Shown here: positions 3-29,486 of the stretch, in pieces
Numbering within the stretch: position 1 is the stretch's first letter
How the letters are laid out: every line of letters begins with the position of its first letter
Origin: Pecten maximus
Lineage: Eukaryota
Length of the DNA stretch: 64,000 nucleotides
Direction of reading: 5' to 3'
NCBI RefSeq assembly: GCF_902652985.1
Contig: NW_022979591.1
Span: 62,001-126,000 of the forward strand
Translations under genes and position numbers: made by a program
The notes under the pieces: generated by a model
What the model saw: the letters and a program-made list of their open reading frames with translations, nothing else
Database searches by the model: none
Told to the model about the DNA's origin: nothing

Positions 3-3000
3 GCGAACCAGCGCGCTTTATTTGGCACACGCTCATCACATTTTCCGAGTAGACAGGTGGAGTTCGCTGAAGGCACCAAACCCGGGGACGGTGAGACACA
101 GCAGGAGATTATTAAAATGCTACGCGATGAGGTAAATGATCTCAAACGGTCGCTTACGCGTGGTGGGACAGCTAACTCACCGTACTACCAGCCTTGGCCC
201 CCACCTCCATACCACAATCAGGGTGGAGGTGAGGTGGTATCTCCGTATTACCCGCCGGCGGGGGATCCACGTTGGTATCCTCCGTATCGCGAAGGGAATC
301 GAAATCCCGACCGAAGACCTCGATCTCCCGGGTACGACAGTTCCCCGCGGCGCTTCCAACGGTCAACGGATAATGACAGCCGTCAATTTCTGCCTAGGGA
401 CCGGGATCGTTCCCCTACTGCTGACCGGAAGACGTGGGACCGAGGACGTAACTCTACGCCACCAGGATGGAGTAATGGTAGGAGCCAGGGCAACACGGAA
501 GACAGCCGCGTCCCGGTAAACAATTCCATGTCCCCAGACCGCCAGAAAAGCTTTCCTACGCGGTCCCGCTCACCGTCACCCGCGAATAAGGGATCAAGGG
601 ATTCATCCCCTCATAGGGAAATAAAGTTAGTAGTCTCAGAAGGGAGTAGTCTGACCATACCTGTGACCTTGAATGGGACAACCATAAGGGCAGTCGTAGA
701 TACAGCCGCCACCATGACGTTAGTCCGGAGAGGATTACTGGACCACCTGAACGGGCCGTTAATACTTGGAAAGCGCGTACAGCTCCGAGGGTTCACCGGC
801 AACGTGGAGAACGTGTGGGAAATAAAAGATCTACTCATCGGCGTGGGAGACATAGTAACCCCCTGGACGGTATGTGAAGCACCGATTACCGACGACATGT
901 TGCTGGGGGTAGACTTTTTAGCCAAAAACAACTGCGTTCTGGATATGAACTCCGGGAGGCTCCTGATGGCGGATCAGATAATTCCCCTCACCCCGTATAG
1001 GGAGAACAAACAGAATACCACTAAGGTGTCGGCGACTCAGACCACCACTATCCCTCCAAACTCCATAGGATTTTGCAATGTAGCCTGGGATAAAACCGTC
1101 CAGCAGTCAGCCATGATCCAGCCTCATTCCAGCCCAATAGGACCGCTACTCAGCAACACATTTGTAGCCTCGGGAGTGGACCATGCTATAATGAGAGTGG
1201 TGAATGATTCCCTGAAGTCCTTTAAAATTAAAAGGGGGAAGGATGTTGGGAAACTGGAAACCGTGGAGCTACTTACACCACTTCCGGCACGGGAGCAAAG
1301 AGAAGTTCGGAGTGCCCCAGCTTCTGACCAGGAAAATAGGATACCAGAATTTCTACGAGATCTAATCAGTCGGTCAAGCCAGGAGCTGAGCCTCAGTCAA
1401 CGACGGGAACTAGAAGACTTACTATCGGAGTTCCAAGATACGTTCGCCAAACATGATCTGGATATAGGGTGTTTACAGGAGATAACACACAAGATTGACA
1501 CAGGCTCCGAGGACCCCGTTCGGCAGAGAATGAGGAGGACCCCTGCTCATTTCCAGGACCAGGAACGGGAACACCTGGAGAAGATGCTAACCGCTGGTGT
1601 TATCCAACCCTCAAACTCGGAGTGGTCCTCAGCCCCGGTGTTGGTGAGGAAAAAGGACGGAAGCCTAAGGTGGTGTATCGACTACCGAGCCTTAAACGAC
1701 AAAACCGTCAAAGACCGGTTCCCATTACCCAACATAGACGACTGCCTGGACTCGCTGAAGGGGACCAAGTACTTCTCAACGTTGGACATGGCCTCCGGTT
1801 ACTATCAGATAGTCCTTGACGAGCAAGACCGGAAGAAGACGGCGTTTATAACCCGGTACGGCCTATTCGAACACACCAGAATGGGTTTCGGGCTGTGTAA
1901 CGCCCCAGCAACGTTTCAGCGTGCCATGAACCTTGTTCTGCGGGGACTAACTTGGTCCGAAGTATTAGTGTATCTGGGCGACATAGTCATCCTCGGTAAG
2001 AACTTCCCAGACACTCTCAACAAGCTAAGGAAAGTCTTGGAACGGTTCCGCCAGTATGGGTTAAAGCTCAAGCCCAAGAAATGCGAGCTATTCCGGAAAG
2101 AAGCTGTGTTCCTGGGTCGCCTGGTCAACGAGCAAGGAGTCTCCATTGACCCTAAGAAGATGGAGGCAGTAAAGTCTTGGACGGTTCCCACCGACAGGAT
2201 TAAACTCATGTCCTGGGATTTGCGAACTATCATAGGAATCATGTTCCCAACTACGCCGGGATTACTCAACCGCTCTATGAGCTAACAAAGCTGACAGTAG
2301 ATTTCCGGTGGGGGGAGGAACATCAACAAGCGTTTGAGCAAGTCAAATCAGCCCTGTGTGGTGCACAGTGTCTGTCATACCCAGATGGTGAAGGGGAGTT
2401 CATACTCGACACCGATGCCTCGGACACCACCATAGGAGCAGAGCTGTCACAAATACAGGACGGGGAGATCAAGGTCATCGCCTATGCTAGCCACGTACTG
2501 ATTCCCGCTCAGCGTAAATACTGTACCACCAGGAAAGAGTTGCTGGCAGTGGTGAAGTTCTGCCGGCATTTCCGTCATTACCTCCTAGGCAGGAAATTCT
2601 TCGTACGCACGGACCACAACAGCTTAGTCTGGCTTACTCGGTTCAAGCATATCGAGGGTCAGCTGGCTCGCTGGCTCGAGGAACTGGCCCAATTTGACAT
2701 GCAGATACTCCACAGGCCTGGGAAAACCCATGGGAACGCCGATGGCCTTTCCCGGATTCCGGACACCAGAGGAAGTTGCAATTGCTACCAGGCGGGAACG
2801 AAAGTGGAGAATCTACCGTGCGGAGGGTGCCAGTTCTGCCAGAGGGCGCACCAGCAGTGGGAGAGGTTCAGCGAGGATGTAGACGACGTAGTCCCCCTTG
2901 CTCATCGCAATTTCTGCTCCCAGGAAACCCAGGAGCTCCAGGGGAGTATCAAGCGGGCGACAGCCTCACATTTGGATGCAACCTCCTCGGACGAGGACGA

Positions 3001-4693
3001 CTCTGACAACGAGGGGGACCCCTCAGGAAGACCTGACACAGTCGTTAACTGGATGGAAGGATTATCCAGTGAGACCCTGGGTAAACAACAAACCCAGGAC
3101 CCCTGCATCGCGCCAATCTACCACTGGTTAGACCAGAACATCGAACCGACAGAAGGAGAACTATTCTCGTATGGTCGATCCGTGAAAGCTTTGTGGTTGC
3201 TACGCGCCATGTTATCCATCAGGCAGGGAGTGCTGTACGTCGTTCCAGAGGGACACCAACGTCCCAGGGTGGTTCTCCCACAACAACTCCAAGCGATGGC
3301 CTTGACCTGTGCCCATGATCACACCGTAGCGGGCCATATGGGGGAGAACAAGACCTACAAAAGACTGAAACACCATGTCTGGTGGCACACGATGAGGTTG
3401 GATGCTAAACTGCATGTCCGTTCCTGTACCACATGTACCCGCAATAAGAAAACTAGGAAGCCTAGAACGAGCTTAGGAACCTTCCACGCAGGTTTCCCCA
3501 TGGAGAGGGTCCATGTGGACATACTGGGACCTTTCACACCCAGCAAAGCCGGAAATCGATACATCTTAATGATGGTAGACCAGTTCACTAAATGGGTCGA
3601 GTTGGCCGCGCTCCCGAATCAGTCCGCGGAAACCGTCGCGTATAGTTTTGTCGAACAGATTCTGTCCACATTCGGGTGTCCTCTCCAGGTACACACAGAC
3701 CAAGGCAGTAATTTTGAGAGTCAGCTGTTCACCGAGCTGTGTCAACTGCTAGAGATTACCAAAACCCGCACAACACCCTACCACCCGAGTTCAAACGGAC
3801 AGGTGGAACGCCTAAACCGGACAGTACTGCAGATGGTGAGATGTTGCATACAGGGACAGGATGATACTTGGGACTACTACCTCCCAATGATCAAGATGGC
3901 TATGCACGCAACTGAGAACAGAAGCACGGGATTCACCCCAAACATGCTAATGCTGGGACGGGAGGTGTTTCAGCCTTTGGACCTGATGGTGGGTTCACCA
4001 CCGCCTAAGGCGGAGACGTCCCACCAATGGGTTAGGCACCTCACCGAGTCATTTTCCCGTATACACGAACTAGCTCGACAACACCTAGGACGCACACAGC
4101 GCCGACAGAAGAGAGATCACGACTCAAAACTGACAGAGAACATATTTCGGGTGGGAGACATAGTATACAAAAGAGATTCATCCACCAAAGTCGGGAGGAG
4201 CTCCAAGCTCAAGCCGCCATGGCTGGGACCATATCTAGAAGAAACATGCAAACACCCAGTCTACAAGATCAGGAACCGAAGAGGGGCCAAGTATTGTCAC
4301 CACGATCGCTTAAAGCTCTACGCGGGGGATACGTTTCCCATATGGCTACGTCGCCTAAGACACAACCTCCTACCGGAGGCCGCGTACGATGATCCCTCGC
4401 GGACGGAAGTACCCTCGGACGAGGAGGACATAGACCCGTGTAACGCGAGTTCAGGGGAGGACAATGACGCTCCGACGGCGAGTCGTGGGGGGAAACACCC
4501 CGGAAGCGGTAGTAACACACCGCCAAGTGTGGTGTCCCCGAAAAAACCATCAACAGGCCCCGGGGTCTCGAACCGCTCGAATACCGTTGGCTCTCTCGAT
4601 AGCATTTTGAGGGGGGACCAGAATAAACCAGTAACACGTACGGGGAGACAAACCAGACAACCCCGTAGATTTGACAACTACTTCCTACCCTAG
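3..4693 (+). pseudogene. pol: gag-pol polyprotein (gag tail, aspartic protease, RT, RNase H, integrase), frameshifted near 2212
   Basis: Protease VDTAA; RT LDMASGYYQ and MGFGLCNAPATFQR, with catalytic YLDD changed to YLGD. After the shift the frame reads LGFANYHR...FILDTDAS...RKELLAVV (RNase H). Integrase HHCC, VHVDILGP, HTDQGSNF, NGQVERLN. Confidence 0.92.
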
Positions 4694-4851
4694 GTTACAC
4701 TACGGGAGGGGGGTAGGTAAGTTAGGCAAGCGAATACAGGTGGTGTGTGTAGGCACAAATGCAGGTGGTGTATAGGAGTATATAGATAGAAAATGCTACT
4801 ATTCCGGTCCATACAATGCAACTCTCAGTCAATTCTGTTGCAGGACTACAA

Positions 4852-7181
4852 ATGGATATCCTCGAGATACACCACAGGGAAGATGGGCTCGAGGACCTCC
4901 TTAGGGTCCGACTCCTCATTTGGAGTCGGAGACTTCCTCGCCCCCAGGGTCCGTCCGTGCTCCCCTCGCAGAGCCGGAGAACACGGACCTCGAGGGCGAC
5001 AACATTCCCCCTGAAACGTCCGGGGGGGATACCCCTTCACCAACCCGGGGCCCCACTCCCACTAAAACATCGGGCCTGCCTTCTGGGGAGCCAGAATCTG
5101 ATCCCCAGGAGGCCAGTCCAGAGCCCCGACTGTATCCCCGGGGGATACCCTTCAGGACTGCTGATTGCCCGGACGGGCCACTGGCTGTCCCGAAGGTGCC
5201 CCTAGGGGTACCGCTGCCCACCCTCAGGCTCATGGAGGAAATGAAGGCCTCCGCGGTTCCATTGGAACCCCGGGTGGCACCTTCCATGAGCCACCCCACA
5301 TCCGGTCCAGTTCTCTCGACCCCTGCGGAGAAAGCATCCCTGCTAATACCCGGGGTGATCCCCGCGGGAGCCGAGGGGACATCTGCACCAGGAAGCGCTT
5401 CCTGGGGATGGGGAGACGCCGACCGTGTCCTCCACCCTAGGAAGAGGAGGAGATCCCGGAGGAGGCGGGGTAACACCCCCAAATCCGGGCTCCCCGCTTC
5501 AGAGTCTCCCCTGTCCAGCCCTCCCATGCAGGGAGGGGGATTAGGAGGGACTCCGGGCCCAAATCGACCTTTGCCCTCGCCGGGCCGCCCTCCTATACAA
5601 GGAGGGGGTTCGGCGAAAACGCACAAGAGAAATCAACAGCGGGCCCGTAAACGGGAGAGGGAGGCCGCGTCCAATGCACAGTTTGGCTTCGCCGTTAAGC
5701 CTACAGCATTGCCGGCGGCCTCCCTAGCCGGGAAGCGCCCAGAATGGCCTCTGGGATCCCGGCCGCGCCCGGCAAACACCGACGGTGATTCAGTCACCGT
5801 CCGTGTCTGCCGGGATGGCGAGTTGTGCCCCCTTTGCCATAGGGAGGTGACCAACCTTCGGTCCCACGCGCTGGAAGTTCATTTGAACTTCCTAGCCAGC
5901 GTGGACGGTGGTTGTTTCACCTGCCGGCAGGGGGGGGGGGGGGGGGGCCTCCAGGATCTCCCACTTAAATGGCCATTCTGGTCATCGTGGGACCCTGGAG
6001 GAGAATGTGGCCCCGTGGATCGCGGGTCTGAGACGCATGCTCTGCGCTCAGGCCCACGATTGCGGGTGCGAGGAGGTCGGGGAGCTGTTAGGCCTGATTA
6101 AGGGCTTACACCTCCCTACAGAGGAGGGGCCTTCCGGGGAATTCTCTTTGCGAGAAGGGGAGGTGGCGGAGGCCATCAACTCCGAATTCCAAGATCCCCG
6201 GGATGTCTCCCCCTCGCCTCCTCGGTCCGTTGGGAGTCTCCTCTATTGGAGGCTCCAGCTGACCATTTTGGGCAAGATGCCCCCACACCTGAGGGAGGGC
6301 TACCGTGAGTCCGGGCGCTTTCTGGTCCCGGGCTCCGGTGTTCCCCCGACTAGATCTTCCCGAGTGGCAGTCTATGACTGCCACTTCCACCTCGACGCCC
6401 TCCTAGCTCGGACAGGAGGCAGGTCTTTCGCCGAGTTGGAGAGGGCTGAGGATGGAGGGGGGAAGGCAGAGATCACCCTACTCGGGGGGTAGCTAACTAC
6501 GCCTACCCGAGGGGTTGGTCACTGATGAGGACGCAGGTCCAGGGAGATACCAGGATCGTGGTATCCGTGGGCCTGCACCCTCATCAGGTGGGGGAGGGCC
6601 AGCACCTTCTACCATTTCTGAGGTGCTTGGACAACTCGGCCTGCGGGGCGTTGGGGGAGGTCGGGATAGACCTCACCACCAACTGCGCCTGCCGGCCGAG
6701 ATGCAGAGATCCAGTCGCCTGCAGGAGGGGTCAAACGGAAGGGCAGGAGGTCGTTTTGACCACGGTCCTTCAAAGGGCAGTGGTCAGGGCCTCCCTACCG
6801 TTGGTCCTTCACTGCAGGGACGGGGGAAGCGGCCAAGCGGCCGCTTCGGCCCTGAAATGTATTCGCCAGGTGCCCGGCGCCACCGAGCTTGTGATACATT
6901 GGCACTGGGAGAGGTACCTCCCAAACCTGTACCTGGGGGTGACGGCTCTGTCCCTCAGGACCGAAGCCTCTCGCCGGGTCTTGAGGGAGCATGACTCCAG
7001 CAGACTGCTATTGGAGTCGGATGCTCCCTATCTGGTGCCTTCTGGGGCAGGGGAGGGGCCCAACACTCCCTGGCTCCTGGGGCACGTGCTCCGGGGGTTG
7101 GCCGGTCTAAGGGGGGAGGATCCAGGCCAGCTGGCGGTGGTGCTGAACACCACTGCCAGGAGGGTCTACTCCCTCCCATAG
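4852..7181 (+). pseudogene. tatD: Accessory gene at env position: disordered N-terminus, C2H2-like zinc fingers, TatD-family nuclease (~6367-7181); frameshifted
   Basis: ORF pieces 4920-6101, 5908-6492 and 6525-7181 join across G homopolymers (~5930-5948, 6484-6489). TatD motifs DCHFHLD, VGLHPH, LGEVGID, LHCRD, LLESDAPYL, NTP; zinc finger CPLC..HALEVH. Splice-acceptor-like ctgttgCAG (4843) precedes ATG 4852. Confidence 0.85.
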
Positions 7182-7415: not shown

Positions 7416-7562
7416 GTTGTTCAGGGAACCCCTGGGGTAACTCAGGCTGGGGCCTTCGGAACAACCTCAAGAGTCGGTAATTTAGGAAAGAAAAAAAAAA
7501 CAAATAAGCGTAGTTGTTCAAGGATCCCCTGGGGTAACTCGGGCTGGGGCCTTCGGAACAGC
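7416..7562 (+). repeat. Two ~50-nt direct repeats, each folding into a GTAA-tetraloop hairpin, in the 3' UTR of element 1
   Basis: GTTGTTC...CCTGGG-GTAA-CTC(A/G)GG...GAACA(A/G)C at 7416-7465 and 7513-7562. Confidence 0.7.
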
Positions 7563-8025
7563 TCTCAAATTTCACCCCTAGAGTATAAAAATTATAGGTG
7601 TCCGCTCAAAGGGAGCAGGATTGATAGTTAGGGAATTTGGGAGTAAGAGCTCCCCGCCATCCGTCGTCTATATGGCAGTTATGTCTAGAACTGCCAATAG
7701 AGAAGAATGAAATACGTTAGAAAATAAACAATAGTTCCCCTCTTTTTCTCATATACCCTAGGTAATATGATAGGGCTTAAAATAAATTATACCAATATAA
7801 AATTCCATGAAGGGAACGGTTCAAAATAAGTAACGTTCCTATTCATGGGTAAAACTAAAAGTTTAGCTTAAGGGGGCTCATACCACTTGTTCCTCACGGG
7901 AGATTCCTCGACCCGGACACCCACAGGCTAATCTTGGACCCATGAGCATCCTGAACGACTCCTCTCCACCTGTTTGCCCTGAGGAACCAACGTCCAGAAG
8001 GGGGCCTTCATAAAACGGGGAGGAG

Positions 8026-8265
8026 TGTAGTGAAAATCCAAGGAGAGTGATCTCCCTTGGTAGGAACTCGCTCCGTGCACGAGCTGGAGGTGCGCTCGTA
8101 TGTAATCCCGCGAAGTGACGGAGAGCGCCCTCTTTATCTCAAACCAGCGAACGGAATAGACGCACCAAACGTGAGTAGTCACTGTATTGTATGGTTTTGG
8201 GATACGGGAGCATTCATTAGTCTTCTAGAGAAGGCTGGTGATAACCCACACCAGTTTTCTCTACA
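8026..8265 (+). repeat. 3' LTR of element 1 (240 bp)
   Basis: Follows the PPT directly; inverted termini TGTAG...CTACA; partner LTR not in window. Confidence 0.7.
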
Positions 8266-11809: not shown

Positions 11810-13935
11810 TTAGTAAAAAAATGTTTTGCAAACTTTCACGACCTGCTTTTGGAAAAAATCCTTGTCACGCTTGATTTGTACAGTTGTCATATCATTTGGT
11901 GGAACAAAAACCACAAAGTCACAAATATCAATTCCAGTCAAATTCAACTGGCACTGAACTTGAAAGTAGTAGTCATGGGTCTTTCTCAAGAGTACTTCAC
12001 CACCTTCTGAATATAAGTAGAAGTTTTTGTCCCTAAGTTGGTTTTCAATTTTGGTTTTCCTTTGAAATAATGAAAAGGGGCATTTGATCTCAACCAGTCG
12101 GAGCTGTCCATCAACTTTTACTAGTCTGTCTGGTGTTGCAGCTAGGAAGGGAAGCTTTGGATTGACAACAAGACCAACTGGACAGTTTTGACAGGGTTTC
12201 TTCTCCACATACTTTGCGAATGCCATTGCCTCGTAGTTTAATCCATGTCGAACACTTCTTGTGGTGAAGAACTTTTTCTTTTGCTTGAACGTTCTAACAG
12301 GATCCGTTGCTTCCTTCATTCGACAAAATGAACCAAAATTTGAAGCAGTTATTCTGTATTCTCTCTGTTCAAACCAAAATTTAGATTTGCTTTGAAGCCT
12401 TGTGTTCTTTTCTATATGACGCATGCAGTCAATGTCACTGTCAACCACTGCAGCAAAATGATGCTTCATTTCTGGTGTTGCTGTGGACATAAAGGAATCC
12501 TGATCAATTCCAAAAGAAGTATCTATGATAGCACTATATAGCTCATCATATAGATCAGAGTCAGATAACTGTTTGGTCACGACAGGTGCATAATTATTGG
12601 CCCTTATAGTTTCCAATACTGGCAGTTTCAAACCTGATGCATCGTAAATGTTTACTAACCTTCTCACTTTTTCCTCTGTCACACTGGTACAGGGTTGTGT
12701 TCCTTGATGCTGCAGCACAAATCACGTTTCATTTGTTTGTCAGGGTCATGCTTCACAAAGTTAATGTCGCTAAACAGCAGTGGTTCATCTGTAACTGGCT
12801 TACGAACATGCCACATTTGGAGCTTATCAGTACACGTCTTCACTTCTGGAATACTAGTAACACCCTGATGATGAAGGTCAATGATGCTATACAATGCTGC
12901 AACTAGGTGTTTGCACTGGCCATCGATACCTGCAGGGCATGAACATGTCACCCATTTAACTTTTTGTCCTCCTTCTTTGAAACAAACATAAACACTGTAA
13001 GCTTGTTGTCTCAGCTGCTTGGCACACACTTCTTATAAATATCTGGTTCTTTGTTGTGTTGCTGCTGAGACTGTTCACTCTTCCCTCTCGATACAGTTTC
13101 CATCCTTCCACTTTATGACGCTTTGTGTTGATTTGGTCTGTGATGACTCTTTCATCAATATCCTCTATGGGGAAATCATCACTCCATCCAGTTTTTGGAG
13201 CCACCCTTCCTTGAAATCCCAAGAGACCTGAAAACCAACATATGAAATATTTTCAACATTGCAACACAATATGATATAAATATTGTTATATTATCAAAAT
13301 GCTAGCTGTACATGTGGTTTTCGAACTCAATTGTAGATGAACAGTAGATTTTTAATCCAGAAGTTCCCAGTTTGGTCCCTCGATAGCTATAGCAATGGTA
13401 GTTATTCAGATGCATATTGATTCTGCCCTCCATTAAATTTAATCTTGAGTCAGTATTTATGTTTTAAAATATAATTAAACTGAATGGAACATTTACAATA
13501 CTTAGGGGTAAATTAAAATACCAACAAAGAATATGGTCAATGCATATACCAAATATCAACGTTTTCACAGAATTGTTTTGACAAGACACATTTCTTGTAT
13601 ATTGCATATTATTTTAGATACATCTGAAAGCCAATTAAATATTAAAGATTTTGGTAAGCATGCTTTACCTGTACGTGATATTGTTGGGTTTAATGCCATA
13701 ATATCTACACATCCAGGACAACCAAGAACTCATGTCGTCAACTTCATCGCCATCAATGTTCACACAGTTCGGATGATACCATTCTTCACAGAAATCACAC
13801 TGAATCATGACTTTTTCAGGATCATCCTGGGACCTACATATGCAGTATAGCCGTCTATCTTTCTTTCTACTCTCCTCAGTGTGGTTGGATTCATTTGGAT
13901 CTGTAAGCTTTCTTTTCTTGGACATCTTGACACTG
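11810..13935 (-). pseudogene. PHD finger + SWIM + YqaJ/lambda-exonuclease accessory gene of a DNA transposon (ISL2EU- or Kolobok-type), intron-containing, frameshifted
   Basis: PHD exon LYCICR..MIQCDFCEEWYHPNC (~13670-13930); SWIM CSCPAG..CKHLVAAL; YqaJ motifs RITASNFG, HGLNYE, FLAATPDRLV, LVEIKCPF, YYFQVQCQL. Frameshifts near 13030 and 12690. Confidence 0.85.
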
Positions 13936-15402
13936 TTAAAAAATAACCAACAATATTTAATCATTGCAACTGGACCAAAACCGTATTATATCAGCTAAGT
14001 CCTCATAGGATTTGTCCTTTCTTATATATACTCACATGATAAATTATAACACAGTAAGTTAGAAAATATTAACTATATTACTATACCAATCCGTGTCATA
14101 ACATTTAGAAACTTTTTAGAAATGAACCAGACGATTAAAACTTGTAAACAGTAACTACATAAGATATGGACTTTATTACAAAGATCAGAAGTACAGCATT
14201 ACACAAAGAGAAAACCTATGACCCTTAATCCATACAGGGGTATAGTAAACATGGGACATGTAACCTGTACAACCATATTAAGGGTAGTTATGTTCCAATG
14301 AGCCAGAATATTAAAATTGCTGATAAATATCTATCAAGGACCAGGTTACAAAGAATATACCATATAATTTTTAACCTTGCCTACTGTTATGTTTAAGGTA
14401 AACAAATAAGGAAAAATGATATTTTTAATTTCATTTATGTTTATTATTCCTGTATAAATATATTAACGAATATGTACTTATTGAACAAAAATGAAGCGAA
14501 AAATAATTACTGATTGATTCACAGATTGCCAGGAATCCATTTATGAGAACATTTCCTAAAATTTACAAATATCAACTGAAACTTGTACTAGCAGCCTTAT
14601 GTCACGTGATCGAAGCGGTGTCGGGTCGTTTCTGTAACAAGTCCTATCGGTACCTTTTCGGAAGTTGTTTCGGGACATTCGGAAGTCGTTTCGGTAGAAG
14701 TGCGGGTTGTTTCGGGAGACATGAGCAAGTCGTTTCGGTACTTTCAATCAACATTAACATGAATTAATCTGTTTTTAAAACGATTCATAAATACCTATTA
14801 CGCTTCAGATATTTTGATTATGACAACAAATGTATCGATAATACAAACGGCATTGTTTTAACCCCCAAGCGCAGTGTTTTCTTTAAACCAGCACTGGTGG
14901 TTCTTTCCTTTATGATCGTACCTAAACACGTTATTATTTGGTTCATATTTTCAAACTTCTATTACAGAAGCAATACAATCAAAATCAAAATTGGTATATA
15001 ACAACCCATGCCCGAGAAATAAAGGCTATACAGGGTGATTTCATTACTTTTTTTTTATTTCGTATTAGGTTTGTTAAATCATTATGTTCATACATGTAGG
15101 TATGGAATTAAATACGTTAAGCTAGAGAAATATATACATTTATAGAAATATATAAAGTTAGAGCACAAACGCGACGGTCGTATGCCGACGTTGGTCTAAT
15201 GTGTCCAACGGTCGCATCTTATATTTGTTGTTGATTTGTAATATCGAGTTATACTAATTACCGATATTATTGTTATGGACGGTATATCATGATTGTTTGA
15301 TATTAATGAAAAAAACTTAGCAAGAATTATGCTGTTTTTGTGTTGATCATTTAACGTTATCACGTGGTAGTCTACAGTAAACGTTGTAAGGGACATTAAC
15401 CC

Positions 15403-18409: not shown

Positions 18410-18795
18410 TGTAGTGTCTCGGGCCGAGTTGACCTGATTACTTACGCCGGAAGTGCGTCACGGTTCACTGGCCCGTGCCAGATAAAGATCTACCCCGTGT
18501 ACAGTCTCTTCACACCTGACCGGCAATCAGACAACACGTGTGTTAGACCATCTCTCGTTTTTAACGGAGTCAGTATATCTCTACGTAAGTAGTGTCAGTT
18601 ATCTTAGTGCTCCGGGCTTTTAGCTAGGACACTAAGCCAGTATATTCTATTGGATAAGTATTTGACTGCTGTATCATCACCGTATCCTGACCTGTCCAGC
18701 GACCCGTGGTGATATAGATCGACCTCCATTGTAAACCAGATAGCGTGACCAACAGCGAGGTAACTAGCTTGTGGTGTAACAGCAACGTTACTTTA
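18410..18795 (+). repeat. 5' LTR of element 2
   Basis: Direct repeat of 24883-25268; TG...TA termini; contains a GTAAGT donor-like site (~18585). Confidence 0.95.
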
Positions 18796-18796
18796 A

Positions 18797-18809
18797 TGGT
18801 GTCAGCAGT
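18797..18809 (+). promoter_or_regulatory. Primer-binding site, tRNA-Leu-like
   Basis: TGGTGTCAGCAGT, 1 nt after the LTR; resembles the tRNA-Leu PBS TGGTGTCAGAAGT. Confidence 0.6.
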
Positions 18810-19412
18810 ATTGGCTAGTAATTGATAAATTAATGTTTATTCATTGAGTCCTGTATTTATCAATTTTCGCGCAGTTTTCCTGATTTTTCTGTGGTTTCAA
18901 TTACGATTTTATCGAATTGTTCCTCAGCCAGCAGTCACGTGGTTTACAGATTCATGATACCGTTCCTGTGTGTTATTTTATAATACGAGGATTAAATTTG
19001 TATCATTTTCATTGCACAACATTATTCTACACCACATATTCCTGTGTTATTTTATGATACGGAGTATTTTTTACGGTGGAATTTTGTATTTATTGTATGC
19101 CTATTTTTTGAATAAAAAATATCCAACCTCTACTGTTTCATCAAAATGGCGTCAGTTCCGGTTAAAATGGCGTCGCTTCCGGCTAGAAACATAAACACGG
19201 CAACTTTTGAAGATATGGTCCGGTATTTACCTGGAATAGGGGAGACACGTGCAAGGACCCTAATTAATATGAGATTTAATTATGGGAAATAAACCGCAGA
19301 GCACATTACAGCGGCTTTTGGTGGCAGAAAACCAAGTCAGGAGTTATGGGACTCTATTTATTTTGGAGAGCCAGGCAGGCAGTCCCATAAGTCACCGGAG
19401 TTTGCTGATTTA

Positions 19413-21215
19413 TTGGACATGGGGGAATTCCTAACCCCAGTTCTCGCCCCACCCCAGGTACCTATTACCACATCGCAGCCGTCAATACAGAGACATGGGA
19501 CTCCGGAGTTTTCAGAAATATCGGAATTTGATCCCATGTCTCGCGCCAACATGGTTGGGTTCCCTAATGTAGGGAATCCTACGCGTATTTTATATAACAC
19601 GGGTGTTGACGATACAGACAAAAAATGGTCACCAGTTAATACTTTGGTGAAACCTGTCAACAGCATGGATTTAATGCCAATGGACTATCCGGATGTCCCG
19701 GTATTTGACCCCAAACAGGAAATGGGGGCCATTCCCAAGTCTAAGCAGCCAGAGTCAGCCAAGTTACCTATACCTATGAAGTTGGAGCCGCCATCTTCAT
19801 ATGATGAGATGACTAGGCATCGACTTAGTTCACTCTGGTTAAATCGACCCGAAGTATCCAGTCAACCCCCACCCAGTCATGCGCCCAGCTACTACCCAAC
19901 TGAGGACAAAGCTAGTGTCCAAGTATCGAGGTCGGACAAGACACCTCAAAGGTCATGTAAGTCTTCGAGGTCACCTAGCAAAGGGACATCGTCTTTCAGG
20001 TCTCTTAAACCAAGATCATCAAGGTCATCGAGGTCACCTGGAAAGCCGATGCATCATCACAAAACTAGGTCACCATCAGATACTAGAGCCAGTTCAAAGG
20101 GTAGGTCTGGACACCATAGGCGCCGTCATGACTCCAGGTCAACATCCAGGTCTAGAAGGCAACCTAGTTCTTCTAGGCACCGAGGATATTCGCCATGTCG
20201 TCATGACCGTATGAGCACTAGCCGGAGTGTTCGGTCTCCTTCAAGGAAAGGTTACAGCGATCGCTCTGTTTCGCGTCGCCACAAGCGCTCTGTTCCGCGT
20301 CATCGCAGTCGCGGTCATCACAATCGCTCCAGTCGTGAGAAGTCGAGATTTTATTTCGACACCTCAAGTTCTGGTAGCGAGTCCAGTGGAGATGATTATC
20401 ATAGCTTGGGACCACGGGGTAAGCCACAGAAGCTACCGAAAAACCTCAAGTATGATGGTTCAACAAACTGGCTGTCATTCAAGCAGAAGTTTGACAGTTT
20501 CCGTACGGTCCTTCACTGGTCAGAGGGAGAATGCCGTGACTACCTGACGTGGGCATTAGATGGTAAGGCCTTGGATTATTTCACGATGAATGTCGGCATG
20601 GGACGGGAATGTTCTTTCCGTACAATTATGAAGAAATTGGAGGGACGTTTTGGTGCTAAGGAATTACCCGAGACGTCGACGGTCAAATTCCAACAGGCCA
20701 CTCAGAAGAATGACGAGTCACTCGATGACTGGGCCGATAGAGTTATGACCCTCGCCACACCCGCATTTCGTCACCTACCGGAGAAACATGCCCGTTCCGA
20801 GGCCATTTCCAGATTTTGCCAGGGGAGCACTGACAAAGACGCAGGGAAACATGTGTTTCTCATCAGACCACGGTCCATGGAAGGAGCTCTGAACCTGATG
20901 AAACAATATCAGTATGTTAGCCAGGCCGTGGATGGAAAGAAGAAAAAAGGAAGGGAGGAAACCTCAGTCAATGCAGTGAAGTCTTCTCAAGATGAGATTA
21001 AAGCTCTAATTGAGAAGGAGGTCAACAAACTTGCAGCTAAACTGGGGAAGACCAATCTACAGGCTCAAGGACAGTCTGGTTCCAACGAAATAACCTGCTT
21101 CTTTTGTAAAGGAGCAGGCCATATGAAAAAAGACTGCCGCCGCTACAAAAGGTGGTGTGAGAAGAACCCAGACAAGGTCAAGAAGGCAAAGAACTCTACC
21201 GATTCTTTAAACTAG
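19413..21215 (+). CDS. gag: Gag of element 2 (Arg/Ser-rich linker, capsid-like region, CCHC zinc knuckle)
   Basis: KYDGSTNWLSF capsid-like motif, QKNDESLDDWADRV, CFFCKGAGHMKKDC. True start codon uncertain. Confidence 0.9.
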   Translation: MDMGEFLTPVLAPPQVPITTSQPSIQRHGTPEFSEISEFDPMSRANMVGFPNVGNPTRILYNTGVDDTDKKWSPVNTLVKPVNSMDLMPMDYPDVPVFDPKQEMGAIPKSKQPESAKLPIPMKLEPPSSYDEMTRHRLSSLWLNRPEVSSQPPPSHAPSYYPTEDKASVQVSRSDKTPQRSCKSSRSPSKGTSSFRSLKPRSSRSSRSPGKPMHHHKTRSPSDTRASSKGRSGHHRRRHDSRSTSRSRRQPSSSRHRGYSPCRHDRMSTSRSVRSPSRKGYSDRSVSRRHKRSVPRHRSRGHHNRSSREKSRFYFDTSSSGSESSGDDYHSLGPRGKPQKLPKNLKYDGSTNWLSFKQKFDSFRTVLHWSEGECRDYLTWALDGKALDYFTMNVGMGRECSFRTIMKKLEGRFGAKELPETSTVKFQQATQKNDESLDDWADRVMTLATPAFRHLPEKHARSEAISRFCQGSTDKDAGKHVFLIRPRSMEGALNLMKQYQYVSQAVDGKKKKGREETSVNAVKSSQDEIKALIEKEVNKLAAKLGKTNLQAQGQSGSNEITCFFCKGAGHMKKDCRRYKRWCEKNPDKVKKAKNSTDSLN

Positions 21216-21247
21216 TAGGGCCCAGGACTACGGGCCAAGCCCCTGAG
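21206..21247 (+). promoter_or_regulatory. Candidate -1 ribosomal frameshift signal (gag/pol)
   Basis: T TTA AAC just before the gag TAG, 6-nt spacer, then stem GGCCC/GGGCC. The -1 frame is open into the protease. Confidence 0.75.
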
Positions 21248-21810
21248 CCACTTGTAGATTTAGGCCTAGATATGGATTCTATGGAGGTTTTTAACCCCAT
21301 GCCTACTACTCCCATGGTTGTTTCAACCGATCCAGCAAATGTTTTGCTAGATATTTCTTCTTCTTTACCAATTTCACAACCTGTTAACTCAGAGGCTACT
21401 GGTGCTTTTAGTACAGTAGATGATGCATTTTGTGTCACCTCTAAACCTGAGGTTGTTTATATCAATAGGATTTGTGCTAGCTCCTCATTAGTTAAGGTCA
21501 CAGTTGGAGAGGTACCTATTACAGCCAGGATTGATTCCGGAGCAGAGATGACTATTATCTCCACATCTGTATTTGACAGACTTCGGAAAAAACCTAAGAA
21601 GTTGAAAGATGTTGTAATGCACTTGGCAGACACAGAATCTTCTCTGAATGGCACTTGGATTGCGCCAATTAGTCTGAAAATTGGTTCCAGCGTGTTTAAG
21701 GAAAGCGTGTATGTGGCCCCCATCAGTGATGAAATGTTATTAGGACATGATCTCCTACACAAATGGGGCACCATCCACGATATGAAAACAGATACTCTTC
21801 TGATAGGGGA
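21212..21810 (+). pseudogene. Aspartic protease, truncated by the internal pol deletion
   Basis: ARIDSGAEMTII and MLLGHDLL motifs; jumps at ~21805-21810 into the integrase tail. Confidence 0.85.
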
Positions 21811-22215
21811 GATGTCGTGTATCTTTTAGATACTGCAGTCACCAAGGGTAAATGTAAAAAACTATGTTCCCCTTGGAAAGGACCGGGAGTTATAGTGAAG
21901 AAGATATCGCCTTACCTGTATCAAATCAAGCTTCGCAGTTCCGTTTTGGTGACCAACCATGATAGAATGGCCCCTTGTAAAGATAGGAAAATCCCTGCGT
22001 GGATCCAGACCTTTAAGACAAAAGGGGGAGGAGATGCGGAGCTACCAGACCAGAGTACAGAAGTTTTTTGTGTTTGTCGTAAACCATGGCAAGGCCGGTT
22101 CATGATACAATGTGATTATTGTCAGGAATGGTATCATGGATCTTGTGTCAACGTAACTGCTACTGAGGCACTGGATATTGACAAATACAAATGTAAGGGT
22201 TGCTGTAATAAGTAA
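21808..22215 (+). pseudogene. Integrase C-terminal (SH3-like/GPY-F) region fused to a PHD finger
   Basis: GDVVYL...KLCSPWKGPGVIV...NHDRMAPC, then FCVCRKPWQGRFMIQCDYCQEWYHGSCVNV...KYKCKGC (C4HC3). Confidence 0.88.
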
Positions 22216-22245
22216 TCATGTGCTCTGTTCTGATTATTTACAGAT

Positions 22246-24496
22246 ATGGCAAACAGAGGGACCACTCAGCCCATTGATGAGCAGGCAGCAGCGTGTTTAC
22301 GCCGAGGTGAGCTGTTTCAGCCCCCTACTGCATTCATCGAACGGATGGCCCTCTGTATGATGTCGGATCAACGCTTTGACGAGATCGTCTTGGATATGTG
22401 CAGTTTGGCAAAGGGTAAGATGGGTAAGAAGGGAGCTAACCGGAGACAACTTGAAGGTTGGCTGAAGAAGGTCGCGGAAACCTTGGACTCGCTGCAGCTC
22501 CGTTCATTCGCCTGGATTGAGCAGCACGTCGCCCCGCTGAGTCGTCGCCCTAGAGTAGGACCTGTACCTGCAGAGTCGACGGCTTGTTACCGTGACATTC
22601 GCCTGTCTACCGACCCCAATCTGGAGCGCAGGATCGAGGATGCAGTTACCACTGAGGCCCCTGCAGCATCGGAAGATGACCTGGACCTCTTGGGGGATGA
22701 CCCGATGGATATTGAGCTCATGCCCCCAGTGGATACCATGGATACCCCCGTGTTGGAGGAGCCATTGATTGGATCGCCTGCTGTATCCTCATCCCAGCGA
22801 CCAGATAGCCAGACTGTACCGTCAGGTCGCGTCTCTGCCAAGGGTCCAGCCAGTGTGCGTGAGGATTTTATCCCCGTCTCCCGTGCTAAACCCAAGGTAA
22901 GTGACCGGCCATCCAGGAGTACTCGCCGGACCAGTCCTCGTAAGAAGAGTTCCCGTAGGAGTCCCTCACCTGTCCGTCATCGTTCCAGTCCGCGGAGAGC
23001 TGCCAGAAGCCCTTCAGTGTCTGCCCCTATGCGTCGGACGAGCCCCCGTAAGCGCCCTCACAGCCAGTCAACTGGACCTATTCCCAGGAAGACGGTCCAC
23101 GTTGAGGAGCCCCGTACCACTCGAGTTGTGACGTCTGCCGAGACGAGGAGGAATAGTGGTAGAGGTTCCGAGAGGTTCTGGATCTACGTCGCGAAGCCGA
23201 GCGCCGAGGGTCAGACACTGTGTGATTCCTGACTGCAAGGAGGTTGGGAGCTACGCCAAGCCCCACGCGTTCAACCATCATTTGCCGAGGGTTTTTGACG
23301 AGCGCCTGCCCCCTGCAGCAATCAAGGTTCTTCGTGGACGGAAGGAGGCCCTTTTACAAGCCGCTGTATGGCTTTTGAGAAGAGCCGTGGACAACCTGGA
23401 CGACCTTGTGGAGTACGTGGAGATGCAGCACCTGTTGACAACATCATCGGAGAAGCTCAGCTTTTCAGACTGCCAGATAGTGGGGATGAGGGCATTTTGT
23501 GGCTATTTGAGTGTACCATGTCCAGACAACTTCACGTTGGAACCGGTGAACTCTGTAGCCGTCCTCCTCCACTGGAAGGTTTTGTTGCTGATAGCTGCCC
23601 GGATCCCTGCTACCGAGCGAGAGTATTGGAGGACGTTATTTCCTGCCCCTGAGGAAGTGGGAACCCGAACCCCTCGGGCGTTTGATGCTCACTTCCATCT
23701 TGACCGCACCCTGAAGGCCATGGGATTACGACTGGACTCTACGTTCCAGTCCGTGTTGGATGGTACCAGGATGGACAAGGGAAAGGAGGTAATCGTCGCC
23801 GGGACTTGTGCCTCTTTCTGCGACCCGGAGACTTATCCAACCACGGATAGTCTGAAGACCCTACCAGCGGATATGGAGGTCGCAGTAGGGGTACACCCCA
23901 AGAAAAGATACTCGAGCTCGGAGTTGGATCGTGTCATCAGGAAGCTGAAGGACCTCGTACGACAACGCAGAGTGACAGCAGTTGGCGAAGTTGGTGTTGA
24001 CCACTCCGTACCACCGGAGCAGTGGCCGCAGCAGTTAGTCATGTTGGAGAAGATTCTACCATTGGTGGAGCCTCGACATGTCTTGGTTCTCCATTGTAGA
24101 GGGATGTCCGGAGATAGTGGAGCAGAAGCATACCTCCTTCTTCTACACTACGTAAAGAAGGCAGTGCCTGAAGACCAGCGGATATATCTCCATTGTTTCA
24201 ATGGGGATTCCTATGTCCGTGAGCAGTGGTCTAGTGCTTTTAGGAATCTGTACTTCGGATTTACCAGCATGGCTGCAGGATTCACCCCACCTCAGGTTCG
24301 CGCCTTGAAGTGGATCAACCCTGAGAGAGTGTTGTTGGAGACCGACGCCCCCTACTTCAACCGGTCAGGCCGCAAGTGGTCTGCACCCAACCAATTGTAT
24401 TGGACGGCGGAGGCTGTAGCAAAACACCTCAGTTACACGGCGGAATCCCTGCTGAATGCGACCGTAACCAACGCTCAACGACTGTTTCGTCACTAG
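22246..24496 (+). CDS. tatD: Accessory protein (~750 aa, one frameshift near 23150): N-terminal region, RS-rich linker, C2H2-like finger, TatD nuclease (~23675-24496)
   Basis: Overlapping ORFs 22246-23232 and 23156-24496. Motifs DAHFHLD, VGVHP, VGEVGVD, LHCRG, YLHCF, YFGF, LLETDAPYF, NAQRLF. Acceptor tttaCAG (22243) just before the ATG. Confidence 0.9.
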
Positions 24497-24882
24497 GAAC
24501 TCGGAAAGGACAGTTAGGGACGGGGTTGTACCTCAGTATTTTACTAGGTAGTGAGTCTATTTTATAGGCGACCCGTACCCTCATCATCGAGGATTGTATT
24601 CTAGACATGGAGGTCGGGATTGCATCCATGTATTTTACAGGATTGTGTGTCCTTTTAGGACGACCCGCGCCTCATAACCGGATTTGACTGCAAGGGATTT
24701 TATCCCTACTATTTCCCCCTTTTTGGAGGAAGCAACCCAGTAGTAACTTAAGTGACTTCATCGCAACGCTTTTAGTGTGCAGAGTCAAAATTTAGGAACT
24801 TGATCAAGACACGGAAGATCTTTGTATATACCATTACCAACCCTCCGGCCATAAAGGACTTTCATTATAAAGTTGGGAGGAA

Positions 24883-25268
24883 TGTAGTGTCTCGGGCCGA
24901 GTTGACCTGATTACTTACGCCGGAAGTGCGTCACGGTTCACTGGCCCGTGCCAGATAAAGATCTACCCCGTGTACAGTCTCTTCACACCTGACCGGCAAT
25001 CAGACAACACGTGTGTTAGACCATCTCTCGTTTTTAACGGAGTCAGTATATCTCTACGTAAGTAGTGTCAGTTATCTTAGTGCTCCGGGCTTTTAGCTAG
25101 GACACTAAGCCAGTATATTCTATTGGATAAGTATTTGACTGCTGTATCATCACCGTATCCTGACCTGTCCAGCGACCCGTGGTGATATAGATCGACCTCC
25201 ATTGTAAACCAGATAGCGTGACCAACAGCGAGGTAACTAGCTTGTGGTGTAACAGCAACGTTACTTTA
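24883..25268 (+). repeat. 3' LTR of element 2
   Basis: Preceded by PPT AAAGTTGGGAGGAA; matches the 5' LTR. Confidence 0.95.
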
Positions 25269-26079
25269 GTGTGAACAGTTTACTTTCAAATTCAAAAGAT
25301 GTTGTTTGCGTGTTACCGACAGGATATGGGAAATCTTTGATATTTGAAATTGTACAAAAAATTACTAACTCTACTGTCATTTTGATAAATCCACTGAACT
25401 ATATTACTGCCGAGCAGGTAGACAGGTATATGCCAAATCTGTATGTGTTTGTCCTGAACTCCATAAAAAGTTTCTTTATTCTTCAAAAACATTCATTTTT
25501 GATTGGACACCCGGAGCATTTCCTGCAGGATGATATATTCAGTGTGTTACGTTCGGACGAGCTCCAGCATAATGTTAAATTCATAATTATTGATGAAGCA
25601 CACTGCATTCATCTTTGGGGCGAGGAATTCCGACAAGATTTCATGAAAATACAAAAACTGAGAGCAGTATTTCCAAGTGGTGAGTATAGTCACATATATA
25701 TACTGTCAGTGTGATATAGTACATTTGTAATAAGGAGATAAGATAATGATAGATTTATATGATTTGTATGGTAAAATACAATGTTTATTTCCATGTTGAA
25801 AATCACATAGTGCAAAATTTAAGTAAAAAGTTTTGATTGTATAAGCTGTATTTCTTTTCTACAGCATGATTGTTACTGGGTTGGTCTAATTAATACTTAG
25901 TCATTCTAGTTTTACAATGGATAAATACTTTAGCAGTTCCATTACAATATCTATAATGTGTCACATACAATATATAATGCAATAATACATTTTAAGCAAT
26001 AAGTTGTTTTCAATCAACTGATCAGGGGTAACAATATGTTTCTAATGATTGATTGATCAATCTGTGTAATGAGATATAT

Positions 26080-26170
26080 AATCCTGATATTTGACATAAG
26101 GGTGGCGTGATGTCTGGGATCAAATCCTTCTCTAATGGGAGAGGCCCTTATATATATCTCACATTGTATA
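26080..26170 (+). repeat. Interspersed repeat in a RecQ intron; inverted copy at ~34880-34965
   Basis: TTTGACATAAGGGTGGCGTGATGTCTGGGATC occurs as reverse complement near 34925-34956. Confidence 0.7.
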
Positions 26171-28977
26171 ACAGGTTATCAAATTTATGAAGGAACAAAC
26201 ATGAATAATTTATGTCATGTACAGAATACTGATTTCATCCATATATTATATTGTATATATTAATAAATGTGTTTTTCACACATACATAACAATATGTACA
26301 ATATTTTTATCATAACAAAAGTCAAAAACATATTTATACATGTACATGGGTACAAAGACATGAGAAATAAATTTAATATACATATCTTTCAATTTTCATT
26401 CTTAGCAAAAGTTTTAGCACTGACTGGAACTGCTGGTAAAAAAACCATTCAATTGATCACATGTAATCTTTTGATGGATGACTTTGTTCTGATAAAATCC
26501 TCGTTGTGCAGAAATAACATCAAATTTAACTTTCAAAAACGCCCTGCAAATAAAGACAATGAAAGTTCATATTTATCTATCATTCAACCATTAATACAAC
26601 AACTTGTAAGCAACAAGAATTTCCCTAAAACTGTTGTGTATTCAAAATTGAAATGGTGTGGATTTGCATACGAGGAATGCATCAGGATAAGCCATGATTT
26701 GAAAAGAAAAGTGGCCCAGTTTCACTCACCTTGTACACTGGATGTAAGTTCTAAAGTTGAATAATTAACAACCCAATATTTCCTGTATTAAGTACAGTTT
26801 CATTAGGTTTTTACTGTTTAATTTCATACCTGTCAATCTTCCCATTTTAAATTTGAGGAATTGATATATGCAAATCAGTTTAATTAAAAAAAAAAAAACA
26901 ATTCATTGATTCATTCCAGGATCAGGTTGCATGGAAGCAAACTTGTTTTGATTTCAGAGATTTTGTTTCAATTCACATTTTATACCGGCATGCATTTGTT
27001 ACACTGAACTTATTATTTGGTTGCTATAATAATCAATTAAGTCTGTTTTAACTGTTAATAATGTTCATAATGTAAAAAAAAAATGAAAATCTCCCTGCAA
27101 AAAAGTCAGAAAATAAATTTTGTAGTTTTTACTAAATCAACCAAATAAAATTTGTAGCTTTTCTTATTAGACCGATGCAGTGATATTGTTGTTCATTGTG
27201 AAGTCACACATGTGAAAGACATTTAATTAATGTAATGGAACCCACATTGACAATATCGATGACCTCAATCAACTAATGAAAAATTAACTTAATTAAGACT
27301 TCAAAAAGGTCAACCCTTTATATAGAAACTGCATTGCATGTTAGTGATAAAGGCATGCACATAATAAATAAAATTTATACATAAGGCCACTATCTATGTC
27401 AAAATGTTGTTTTGATAATTTTGATCAAATATGTAATATATAAATTTATTTAGATGAAAGATGATGTTTTGAAGAACTTCAGCTGCCCTGATGGAGACCT
27501 TCGCCTGATCTTTGCCACAGAAGCTTATAGTATGGGCACAGATGTTACAGACATAAGGAGAATTATACATCTAGGTGTTCCTTCATCCTTGGAAAGTAAG
27601 ATATGCATGTACATCTTAATTTTATGACGGTTATTAAGAATTTTGAATAAAATGACTTATAATGCTAGATATGTATGATTATGGGGTGGGGATCTCAAAT
27701 GCTTCAAACATATAGCCCAGAAATGAAGTCAAGACTCAACATGATTGTGTTTAAAGAAACCTGAAGTCCCTCGGGGGTGGGGAAAGACCCCTGGGCCAAT
27801 TTTTACATCAGGATTGTGTTCATCTCTTGATGCCCAGCAATGCTATTTATGGTTATGGGGTGGGGATCTCAATAGTTTTAAAAATACAAGAAGTCCTTTA
27901 TAGCAATATAGTCAAATTGCTCTCTTTTGCCCTGCTCATTTTTGCAATGTCATCCATTGTTTAGGTCCAGAAAAGAAATGTAAGCAATTATCCAATAATT
28001 TCTTTATATTTACAGTATATTTGCAAGAAGTGGGGCGAGCAGGTTGGGATGGACAAATGGCGGAGGCCATTTCTTACTTCAACAACAGGGACTTGGCCTC
28101 AGATGTAGTTGATAAATCTGTAAGAGATTTGTGCACCACAAAAACATGCAGGTGGACTTTTTTGTGCATTTATTTTAATTGTGTAAAAGATGAGCACCCA
28201 GTGCTTCACAACTGCTGTGACAGGTGTTGTCAGCACTGCAAGTGTAGGGAATGTTTTAATCTCAATTCAGATTTGGATATGAATGAAAATACTGCATTCC
28301 CAACAGAGGAGATGTTTCTTGGTGTTGACTCAGTAGTAGCTAGCAAAATTTATGGAACTCTTGTAGAGTATTTCTGTGAAGAAAACTCATTGCACAAAGT
28401 CCCAAATCCATCTCTGTATACTGGCTTGACAAACAGTTTAGCATCCTCAATTGCAAACAAATATCCAATTTTTCATAGTAAGCAGTCAGTTTTATGGAAA
28501 GCTAGTCATCTAAATGACATTTATGCAGAAAATATTGCATCCATTGTTACACAAATAGGTACAATGTAATGTATCATCGTTCAACTGAAATAATATACAG
28601 TACATGTATATATTAAGTAGGCTTCTAATATATAAAGTAAGGCTTCATTTCATTGTATATCAAATACATTGTATATATGATCAAAGAAATGATATTGACA
28701 AATCAGAAAAGCAAATTGTCTTTACAAACCAGTCTGGCTCTTGAAGATTTAGGACACAAGTATAATATATCATTAAAAAAACACTTCAAAGGAATAAAAC
28801 AGTACATAATGTCACAATATATGTTCAGCTAATCCGACACTGAATGCCCTTTTGTAAGTAAAATCATCTTTTACAGAATACAGTGATTTTATTAAACATG
28901 TATAGCTCACAATAATCATATATATACATCATAAAATACCAGCTGGTAGTGTATATGTATTTACCACTTTAGCCAAG

Positions 28978-29375
28978 TATGAAAATTGTCTACATCAAGA
29001 CAAATATGAAAATTGTCTACATCAAGACAAATATGAAAATTGTCTACATCAAGACAAATATATAAATTGTCTACATCAAGATGAATATGAAAATTGTCTA
29101 CATCAAGACAAATATATAAGTTGTTTACATCAAGATGAATAAGAAAATTGTCTACATCAAGATGAATAAGAAAATTGTCTACATCAAGACAAATATATAA
29201 ATTGTCTACATCAAGATGAATATGAAAATTGTCTACATCAAGACAAATATATAAATTGTCTACATCAAGATGAATATGGACATTGTCTACATCAAGATGA
29301 ATATGAAAATTGTCAACATCAAGACAAATAGGAAAATTGTCAACATCATGACAAATAGAAAAATTGTCTTCAATA
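28978..29375. repeat. 27-bp minisatellite (~15 units) between the convergent Academ genes
   Basis: Unit AAATTGTCTACATCAAGA(C/T)(A/G)AATA(T/A)(G/A)A. Confidence 0.9.
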
Positions 29376-29486
29376 TGATAAGCAAACATTGTTTTTCACT
29401 GTTCAACATCAAAGAAGCTATTTCTCTGATTGCACTGGGTTTTTTTTTATCAAATCATGAATTGTCTCTTTAATAATCATTTTTGC

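Follow-up and report, generated by a model that had tools for sequence, protein, structure and literature searches.

The frame at positions 4852..7181 (+) of the window, the 64,000-nt stretch of the scallop Pecten maximus analysed here (G000:C462:62001-126000), is the accessory third gene (ORF3) of a complete Gypsy LTR retrotransposon, element 1, present as a decayed copy; it encodes a zinc-finger protein ending in a TatD nuclease domain, a fusion that probably goes back to a single, old capture. Element 1, a member of a young family, runs from 3 kb upstream of the window to 8265. Its LTRs, recognized by comparison of the pair, are identical, 240 bp each, with TG...CA ends: the 5' LTR lies upstream of the window (G000:C462:59002-59241) and the 3' LTR at 8026..8265 (+), with ATAT directly after it as part of the 4-bp target duplication flanking the element. 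A PBS-like site and a polypurine tract (8012..8025, +) are also present. The gene order is gag, then protease, reverse transcriptase (RT), RNase H and integrase in the Ty3/Gypsy arrangement, then ORF3, which about 850 non-coding bases separate from the end of the element. All four pol domains were recognized by the Pfam scan: the 3' part of gag, the protease and the RT occupy 3..2285 (+), while RNase H, a Cys-rich insert and the integrase occupy 2204..4693 (+). Thus, the original prediction that the TatD gene is joined to a complete though mutated pol was borne out, PF01026 being found together with the four domains. The 3' untranslated part also holds two 48-nt repeats, 94% alike, at 7416-7463 and 7513-7560. 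A decayed TatD element of family 5 (L076, G000:C462:42300-52000) is located 10-20 kb upstream on the same small scaffold, so that three of the element families described below cluster there.

In open copies, the ORF3 protein has a Pro/Ser-rich, partly basic disordered N-terminal arm, a zinc finger with a helical domain, and the TatD nuclease domain. The window copy follows this layout, with a low-complexity Pro/Ser-rich region bearing a basic, putatively NLS-like Arg cluster (4852..5825, +), the zinc-helical domain (5826..6320, +), where the finger CPLC...H...H (5826-5882) is followed by a second Cys pair and a SxxxLLxW block, and a TatD domain of TATDN2 type (6367..7178, +), assigned by Pfam and by its motifs: DxHxH at 6376-6396, GEVGID at 6654-6671, LHCR at 6807-6818, IHWH at 6894-6905 and ESDAP at 7014-7028. 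The PF01026 match covers 6450-7178 (E 6e-27), and the protein of an open sister copy scores 115 bits, above the cut-off. The barrel region of the structural model mostly has pLDDT over 80, and its best Foldseek matches are YcfH (E 7e-15), TatD, TATDN1 and TATDN3. Features of an env-type membrane glycoprotein and a DEDDy exonuclease domain were both sought in ORF3; Pfam gave only TatD and the model a soluble barrel in the first case, and Pfam and Foldseek gave TatD instead in the second. In no open scallop copy is ORF3 fused to Gag or Pol.

The window holds a second gene of this kind, in element 2, and the two proteins are 29% identical in TatD. They also align outside it, through the SxxxLLxW helical block and the first TatD motif (E 6e-10), and hence belong to one family, as had been proposed, rather than sharing only generic TatD motifs. 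When 20 relatives are aligned, the finger, the LLxW block and every TatD metal ligand prove conserved, the zinc-helical domain being alignable across families and the motifs DxHxH, GE, H, H and ExD being kept across them at about 30% identity. Families 2-5 have one finger and an additional conserved N-terminal block; family 1, to which element 1 belongs, and the protein P0030 have the second Cys pair and lack that block. No Pfam family covers the zinc-helical domain. Since the region of family 1 itself was modelled poorly, with pLDDT under 50 in parts, the domain of family 4 was modelled instead, reaching pLDDT 96; this model had no Foldseek match in PDB or BFVD, and the best VIA Z was 3.2. 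The domain is, as modelled, compact and confidently predicted, and without a clear match to a known fold.

The window copy of element 1 is dead. Compared with its sisters (eight loci, 2.1-3.7% diverged), ORF3 is broken at 4906, ~5930, 6483 and 6905. As predicted, two of these frameshifts fall in G homopolymers, the one near 5930 within an 18-G run and the one at 6483 within a 6-G run. The anticipated in-frame deletion after IHW was found as well: it measures 33 bp, lies at 6905 directly after IHWH, and takes out the stretch following the last metal-binding His. In addition, a 124-bp frameshifting deletion occurs at 4906, where all six covering sisters differ. In pol, sister comparison places a frameshift at 2210, outside any homopolymer run, and an altered RT catalytic motif at 1971..1982 (+), differing from four sister copies; more breaks lie upstream of the window. 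Two sister copies have an uninterrupted ORF3 of 847-848 codons, counted from stop to stop, and the sister on C3006 has a single 2272-codon gag-pol frame, an 848-codon third frame and an intact RT motif.

The suggestion that the copy might be intact save for assembly errors was rejected, because the two deletions, the frameshift at 2210 and the RT motif lie outside homopolymers, and because a contig from an independent public run (X7, depth 3.6, filed under another organism label) spans the 4906 junction in the form of the window, which argues that this deletion is not an assembly error. The junctions of both deletions occur once each in the assembly, in the window copy. The breaks in the G runs may be real or may be assembly errors; the state at 6483 is shared with two of the seven covering sisters, no available contig spanning this position in the window's form, and the raw reads examined at the G runs amount to four, from one run. 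Because its LTRs are identical although the interior is so damaged, the copy was perhaps made by recent mobilisation of a defective template in trans.

Element 2 (18410..25268, +; LTRs 18410-18795 and 24883-25268) is a non-autonomous deletion derivative of family 2, which lost most of pol and kept the zinc finger-TatD gene at 22247-24496, with one break near 23132-23232. An autonomous copy on C19 matches it at 99.4-99.6% identity, and the accessory frame of element 2 is 100% identical to an NCBI protein of Pecten maximus. Element 1 had been thought necessary for placing the lineage by its pol; this does not hold, as element 2 derives from the autonomous C19 copy and the pol of element 1 falls outside the main TatD clade. 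The integrase of family 2 ends with a PHD finger (PF00628; window 21751-22215), which is missing from family 1.

A scan of the genome with PF01026 gave 106 matches. Three host-type TatD loci were examined and are intron-split, the scallop TATDN2 among the host genes being a separate intron-split gene on C7, while the majority of 60 stretches retrieved around TatD matches fell into five element families. At least five scallop families thus carry ORF3. Families 1-5 have complete LTR elements in which ORF3 follows pol and precedes the 3' LTR, with LTR identities of 98.6-100%, a range that also holds for the LTR pairs of the representatives of families 2-5. Outside this genome, named relatives, recognized at the protein level, belong to Argopecten, Mizuhopecten, Mactra, Dreissena, Ruditapes, Nucella, Babylonia, Ostrea and the brachiopod Lingula. 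The profile of the zinc-helical domain by itself retrieved 690 clusters at 50% identity; among the best 150, the sequence leaves room beyond the domain in 77, and TatD follows it in 69 of them. The domain was present in 48 of 80 metagenome loci, and nine such loci with 3.5 kb of upstream sequence comprise seven with an integrase upstream on the same strand, one of the element 2 type and one without pol. Regarding family 1, a word search for close relatives outside the genome returned only one chimeric scallop model, and its top identity to the best 150 domain representatives was 29%. No relative was found in IMG/VR, nor in metagenomes with P0249 as query.

Some side observations concern the same searches. 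Four ENA proteins of 1049-2992 aa (P0198, P0272, P0277 and P0305) have three to five zinc-helical repeats interleaved with ankyrin repeats and no TatD, and could possibly be a source or a second user of the domain. A zinc finger-TatD protein filed under a Sedimenticola MAG (P0273) and an element 2 copy in a contig of a metagenome collection (L153) are probably host DNA in symbiont bins.

In the main TatD tree, of 39 rows, the element TatDs form one clade (97/96) and host TATDN2 another (98/94). When two further scallop TatD genes, both partial, are set against them, elements and TATDN2 group together (93/85); TATDN1/3 are represented by partial, unnamed scallop rows only. The element clade is sister to animal TATDN2 and not nested inside it, which reflects either an old capture or long-branch pull: branches among element TatDs are long, that of family 1 being the longest, the tree tool warns on the joining of family 1 and P0030, and P0030 fell outside the element group in a quick 94-row tree and inside it in the careful 39-row tree. 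Motifs and profile scores of the TATDN2 type agree with this. The [FY][CSA][DEHY]P motif occurs in 27/29 element, 14/25 host and 0/40 bacterial rows, the FPN-type block in 23/29, 19/25 and 0/40, respectively, and a host TatD profile outscores a bacterial one for all 29 element rows. GE.G.D and E[ST]D.P, each conserved in all but one of the 29 element rows (28 of 29), hold the E, E and D equivalent to human TATDN2 E593, E705 and D707, as numbered in the available part of PMC10711561. Within the host gene, the end of one exon has been copied many times in tandem in the next intron (L081:6461-7000).

As an alternative to a single old capture, each element could have taken up its own functionless retrocopy of host TATDN2. 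The pol of family 1 stands apart from those of other carriers, and its protein shares only some 30% identity with theirs and has no counterpart of their conserved N-terminal block, as separate captures would predict. However, the zinc-helical domain is shared among the element proteins and is not a host domain, a topology joining family 1 to host TATDN2 is rejected (p-AU 0.004), and the dN/dS of 0.2-0.3 given below is not that of a passive passenger; separate captures are thus largely refuted and very improbable. The evolutionary part of our best explanation, with one ancient capture of the fusion, is held with high confidence.

The pol trees add to this history. Fifteen TatD carriers form one clade (100/100), while the sister of family 1 is a family lacking TatD (97/96), and a single clade of all TatD-bearing pols is weakly rejected (p-AU 0.04); four short rows were left out of one of these trees. 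Each well-supported TatD subgroup corresponds to a pol subgroup, with family 1 outside in both trees, which fits one gain and two losses. Alternatively, family 1 may have gained the gene laterally. Two TatD-less sister families have a different extra frame upstream of gag (L142:4488-5261, 257 codons; L143:4771-5616, 281 codons), which had no Pfam match; its xxDSR/DSK start may point to SGNH/GDSL hydrolases.

The Cys-rich insert of element 1, in the RNase H/integrase junction region (2741..2902, +), had been expected to mark the TatD clade. It does accompany the gene, since 29 of the 32 scallop TatD loci having RNase H contain it, as do all nine metagenome loci having RT and RNase H, but it is not specific to the carriers, and its use as a TatD marker was rejected: four complete TatD-less elements (L097, L104, L108 and L110; LTRs 99.7-100% identical) have it too, so that it marks a wider clade. 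From 125 insert matches, 40 without a nearby TatD match were retrieved, three with remnants of the gene and 37 with none, many of them decayed. As the four TatD-less elements are young and complete, ORF3 is dispensable for transposition.

Long-term selection on the accessory protein, proposed from conserved catalytic residues amid divergence, was supported, as these residues are kept and the selection is purifying. For TatD, dN/dS is 0.28-0.30 in family 1 (against two diverged subfamily copies) and 0.23 in family 2; for the zinc finger-helical part it is 0.20-0.45, and for RT-RNase H in family 1 it is 0.03. These ratios are inflated by the dead copies included in the pairs, and are quoted unfiltered, a local-identity filter lowering them to 0.17-0.27. 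Between families 5 and 5b, the TatD dN is 0.14 and dS is saturated. Distances of pol and TatD among 16 elements are correlated (Mantel rho 0.66, reached in 0 of 5000 permutations; 0.51 without family 1). As a separate observation, L086 and L087 differ from L022 less at synonymous sites of the accessory gene (0.23-0.51) than at those of pol (0.74-0.96), which hints at exchange of modules between subfamilies.

Co-divergence with pol would also be expected if ORF3 were packaged and helped reverse transcription or integration, by trimming RNA primers or cDNA 3' ends or by repairing gaps as a TATDN1/3-like AP endonuclease/3' exonuclease. TatD-fold enzymes are 3'-5' exonucleases, the top structural matches include YcfH, TatD, TATDN1 and TATDN3, and the gag of element 1 starts with a helix-hairpin-helix motif (Pfam). 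This motif is present in TatD-less families too, though, and the lack of any Gag or Pol fusion in open scallop copies speaks against such a helper; moreover, human TATDN2 hardly acts on RNA-DNA duplexes and does not act on D-loops according to the available text of PMC10711561, and we assign this role a low probability. Throughout the clade, with or without TatD, gag opens with a ComEA-type helix-hairpin-helix (Pfam HHH, HHH_3), as seen at window 19146-19289, L021:7831-9069, L143 and L144.

ORF3 is likely made from spliced RNA, as judged from a predicted acceptor-like site, a pyrimidine tract followed by CAG, at 4829..4843 (+), 8 nt 5' of the ATG. Such a site precedes the ORF3 ATG in all five scallop families, compared to 60 of 1353 background ATGs, and at the same cut-off in only three of seven metagenome frames. 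Four runs, taken by guess as RNA, have contigs over parts of the element. These are uninformative on level or strand and contain no splice joint at the acceptor; two contigs labelled RNA by the same guess cross it unspliced. Two joints from the leader to TatD were set aside, since they lack GT-AG ends and are probably deleted copies.

A likely spliced ORF3 with an Arg-rich, RS/SP-rich N-terminus is what would be expected if TatD now served mainly for RNA binding, the protein exporting or regulating unspliced genomic RNA in the manner of Rev or CERV; the latter, from Cer1, is described in the available part of PMC10309623 as a spliced nuclear product of this kind. A scaffold would have no need, however, of all the metal-binding and catalytic motifs, which are kept at about 30% identity, making this role quite improbable.

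Instead, the reading preferred here is that ORF3 may be a TATDN2-like RNA nuclease acting on R-loops of the element itself, to which we give slightly less than an even chance. According to the available part of PMC10711561, both R-loop RNA and hairpin RNA are degraded by human TATDN2, and its binding to R-loops requires the disordered N-terminus; in medaka, Tatdn2 is expressed in germ cells (PMC12709183, available part). An R-loop role is supported by the layout that the element proteins share with human TATDN2, a disordered arm followed by TatD, and a function as such by the retention of the gene in element 2, a derivative without most of pol. In the proposed mechanism, ORF3 RNA would be spliced, as its acceptor-like sites suggest, and the protein would be nuclear, given its basic, RS/SP-rich N-terminus. 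There, the zinc-helical domain would target it, and TatD, by its descent from the TATDN2 line, would degrade the RNA of R-loops, clearing them from the nascent RNA and transcription unit of the element, which might sustain the output of full-length RNA and reduce damage or silencing at the locus. The substrate may have drifted, as the element TatDs are sister to TATDN2 and on long branches.

A nuclease working against silencing, by trimming or cleaving small RNAs, or else structured transcripts, that feed piRNA/siRNA pathways, would also suit a separate ORF acting in trans and retained by deletion derivatives, and human TATDN2 acts on hairpin RNA as a 3' exonuclease and as an endonuclease in the available text of PMC10711561. 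The N-terminus, though, looks nuclear rather than of the nuage type, and piRNA 3' ends are methylated and bound by Argonaute, both of which make this activity unlikely. Returning to R-loops, the proposal in its broadest form would be that a lophotrochozoan retrotransposon lineage, perhaps older than the mollusc-brachiopod split, uses a TATDN2-line enzyme with a zinc-helical domain of undescribed fold as an R-loop eraser against stalled transcription or host silencing and repair, which we regard as possible but doubtful; if true, this would be a transposon-encoded counter-measure against R-loops.

The closest precedent is the DEDDy ORF3 of the bdelloid Juno/Vesta elements. As described by Rodriguez et al. 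2017 (PMC5408684, in its available part), these Gypsy-type elements also have a 3'-5' nuclease gene in the env position, with intact catalytic residues, missing from some related families and of unproven function. However, the bdelloid DEDDy/RNase D fold is unrelated to the TatD barrel, the zinc-helical fusion and the long disordered arm belong to the scallop protein, and the bdelloid gene was acquired at least twice, whereas the scallop gene has one origin with pol co-divergence and measured purifying selection. Animal TATDN2, in the available parts of PMC10711561 and PMC12709183, resembles ORF3 in its disordered N-terminus and C-terminal TatD, the E/E/D residues, the FCxP and FPN-type motifs and its position as sister group, and differs from it, since the element gene is intronless, multi-copy in LTR elements, fused to the zinc-helical domain, about 30% identical and in its own clade. 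CERV of C. elegans Cer1, compared by its description, is likewise a non-env accessory protein of a Gypsy-type element made from spliced mRNA, as ORF3 would be, but it is an RNA export factor for which the available text names no nuclease domain (PMC10309623). The mollusc Gypsy clades C, AB and MolGy1-16 share superfamily and host group with these elements, and the pol lineage probably falls in C, AB or a MolGy clade; they were defined by RT/RNase H alone, and the searched text of PMC6238403 and PMC8556966 mentions neither TatD nor a nuclease ORF.

In the mostly open full-text literature searched, no paper linking TatD to LTR elements was found, though Repbase may hold annotated elements of this kind. 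Accessory domains listed in the available part of a 2019 opinion paper are the chromodomain, a DnaQ-like exonuclease and a helicase (PMC6338049), and a TATDN2 model is listed inside the squid Hox cluster without comment (PMC6962438). The accessory genes listed for LTR retrotransposons are few, and TatD brings them a new enzyme class; in contrast to most such cargo, it is of old and wide occurrence, diverges together with pol and is under selection. As one genome holds young carrier families and young sisters without the gene, it becomes testable what non-env ORF3 enzymes contribute to an element and whether R-loops limit retrotransposon activity. Moreover, retrotransposon cargo accounts for many mollusc gene models annotated as TATDN2-like, and apparent TATDN2 expansions hence need rechecking.

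Other elements in the window include a third Gypsy element (41821-47634), which served as outgroup; its single frame of 1937 codons has a shorter CxxC insert behind RNase H and a long C-terminal extension that contains C2H2 fingers. DNA-transposon-like fragments, judged from translations alone, occur at 11810-13985 and 25253-34567 (YqaJ-like nuclease, SWIM, PHD and pieces of a RecQ-like helicase), and a LINE-like element at 56793-62747 has an ORF1 and an open 1145-codon endonuclease-RT frame.
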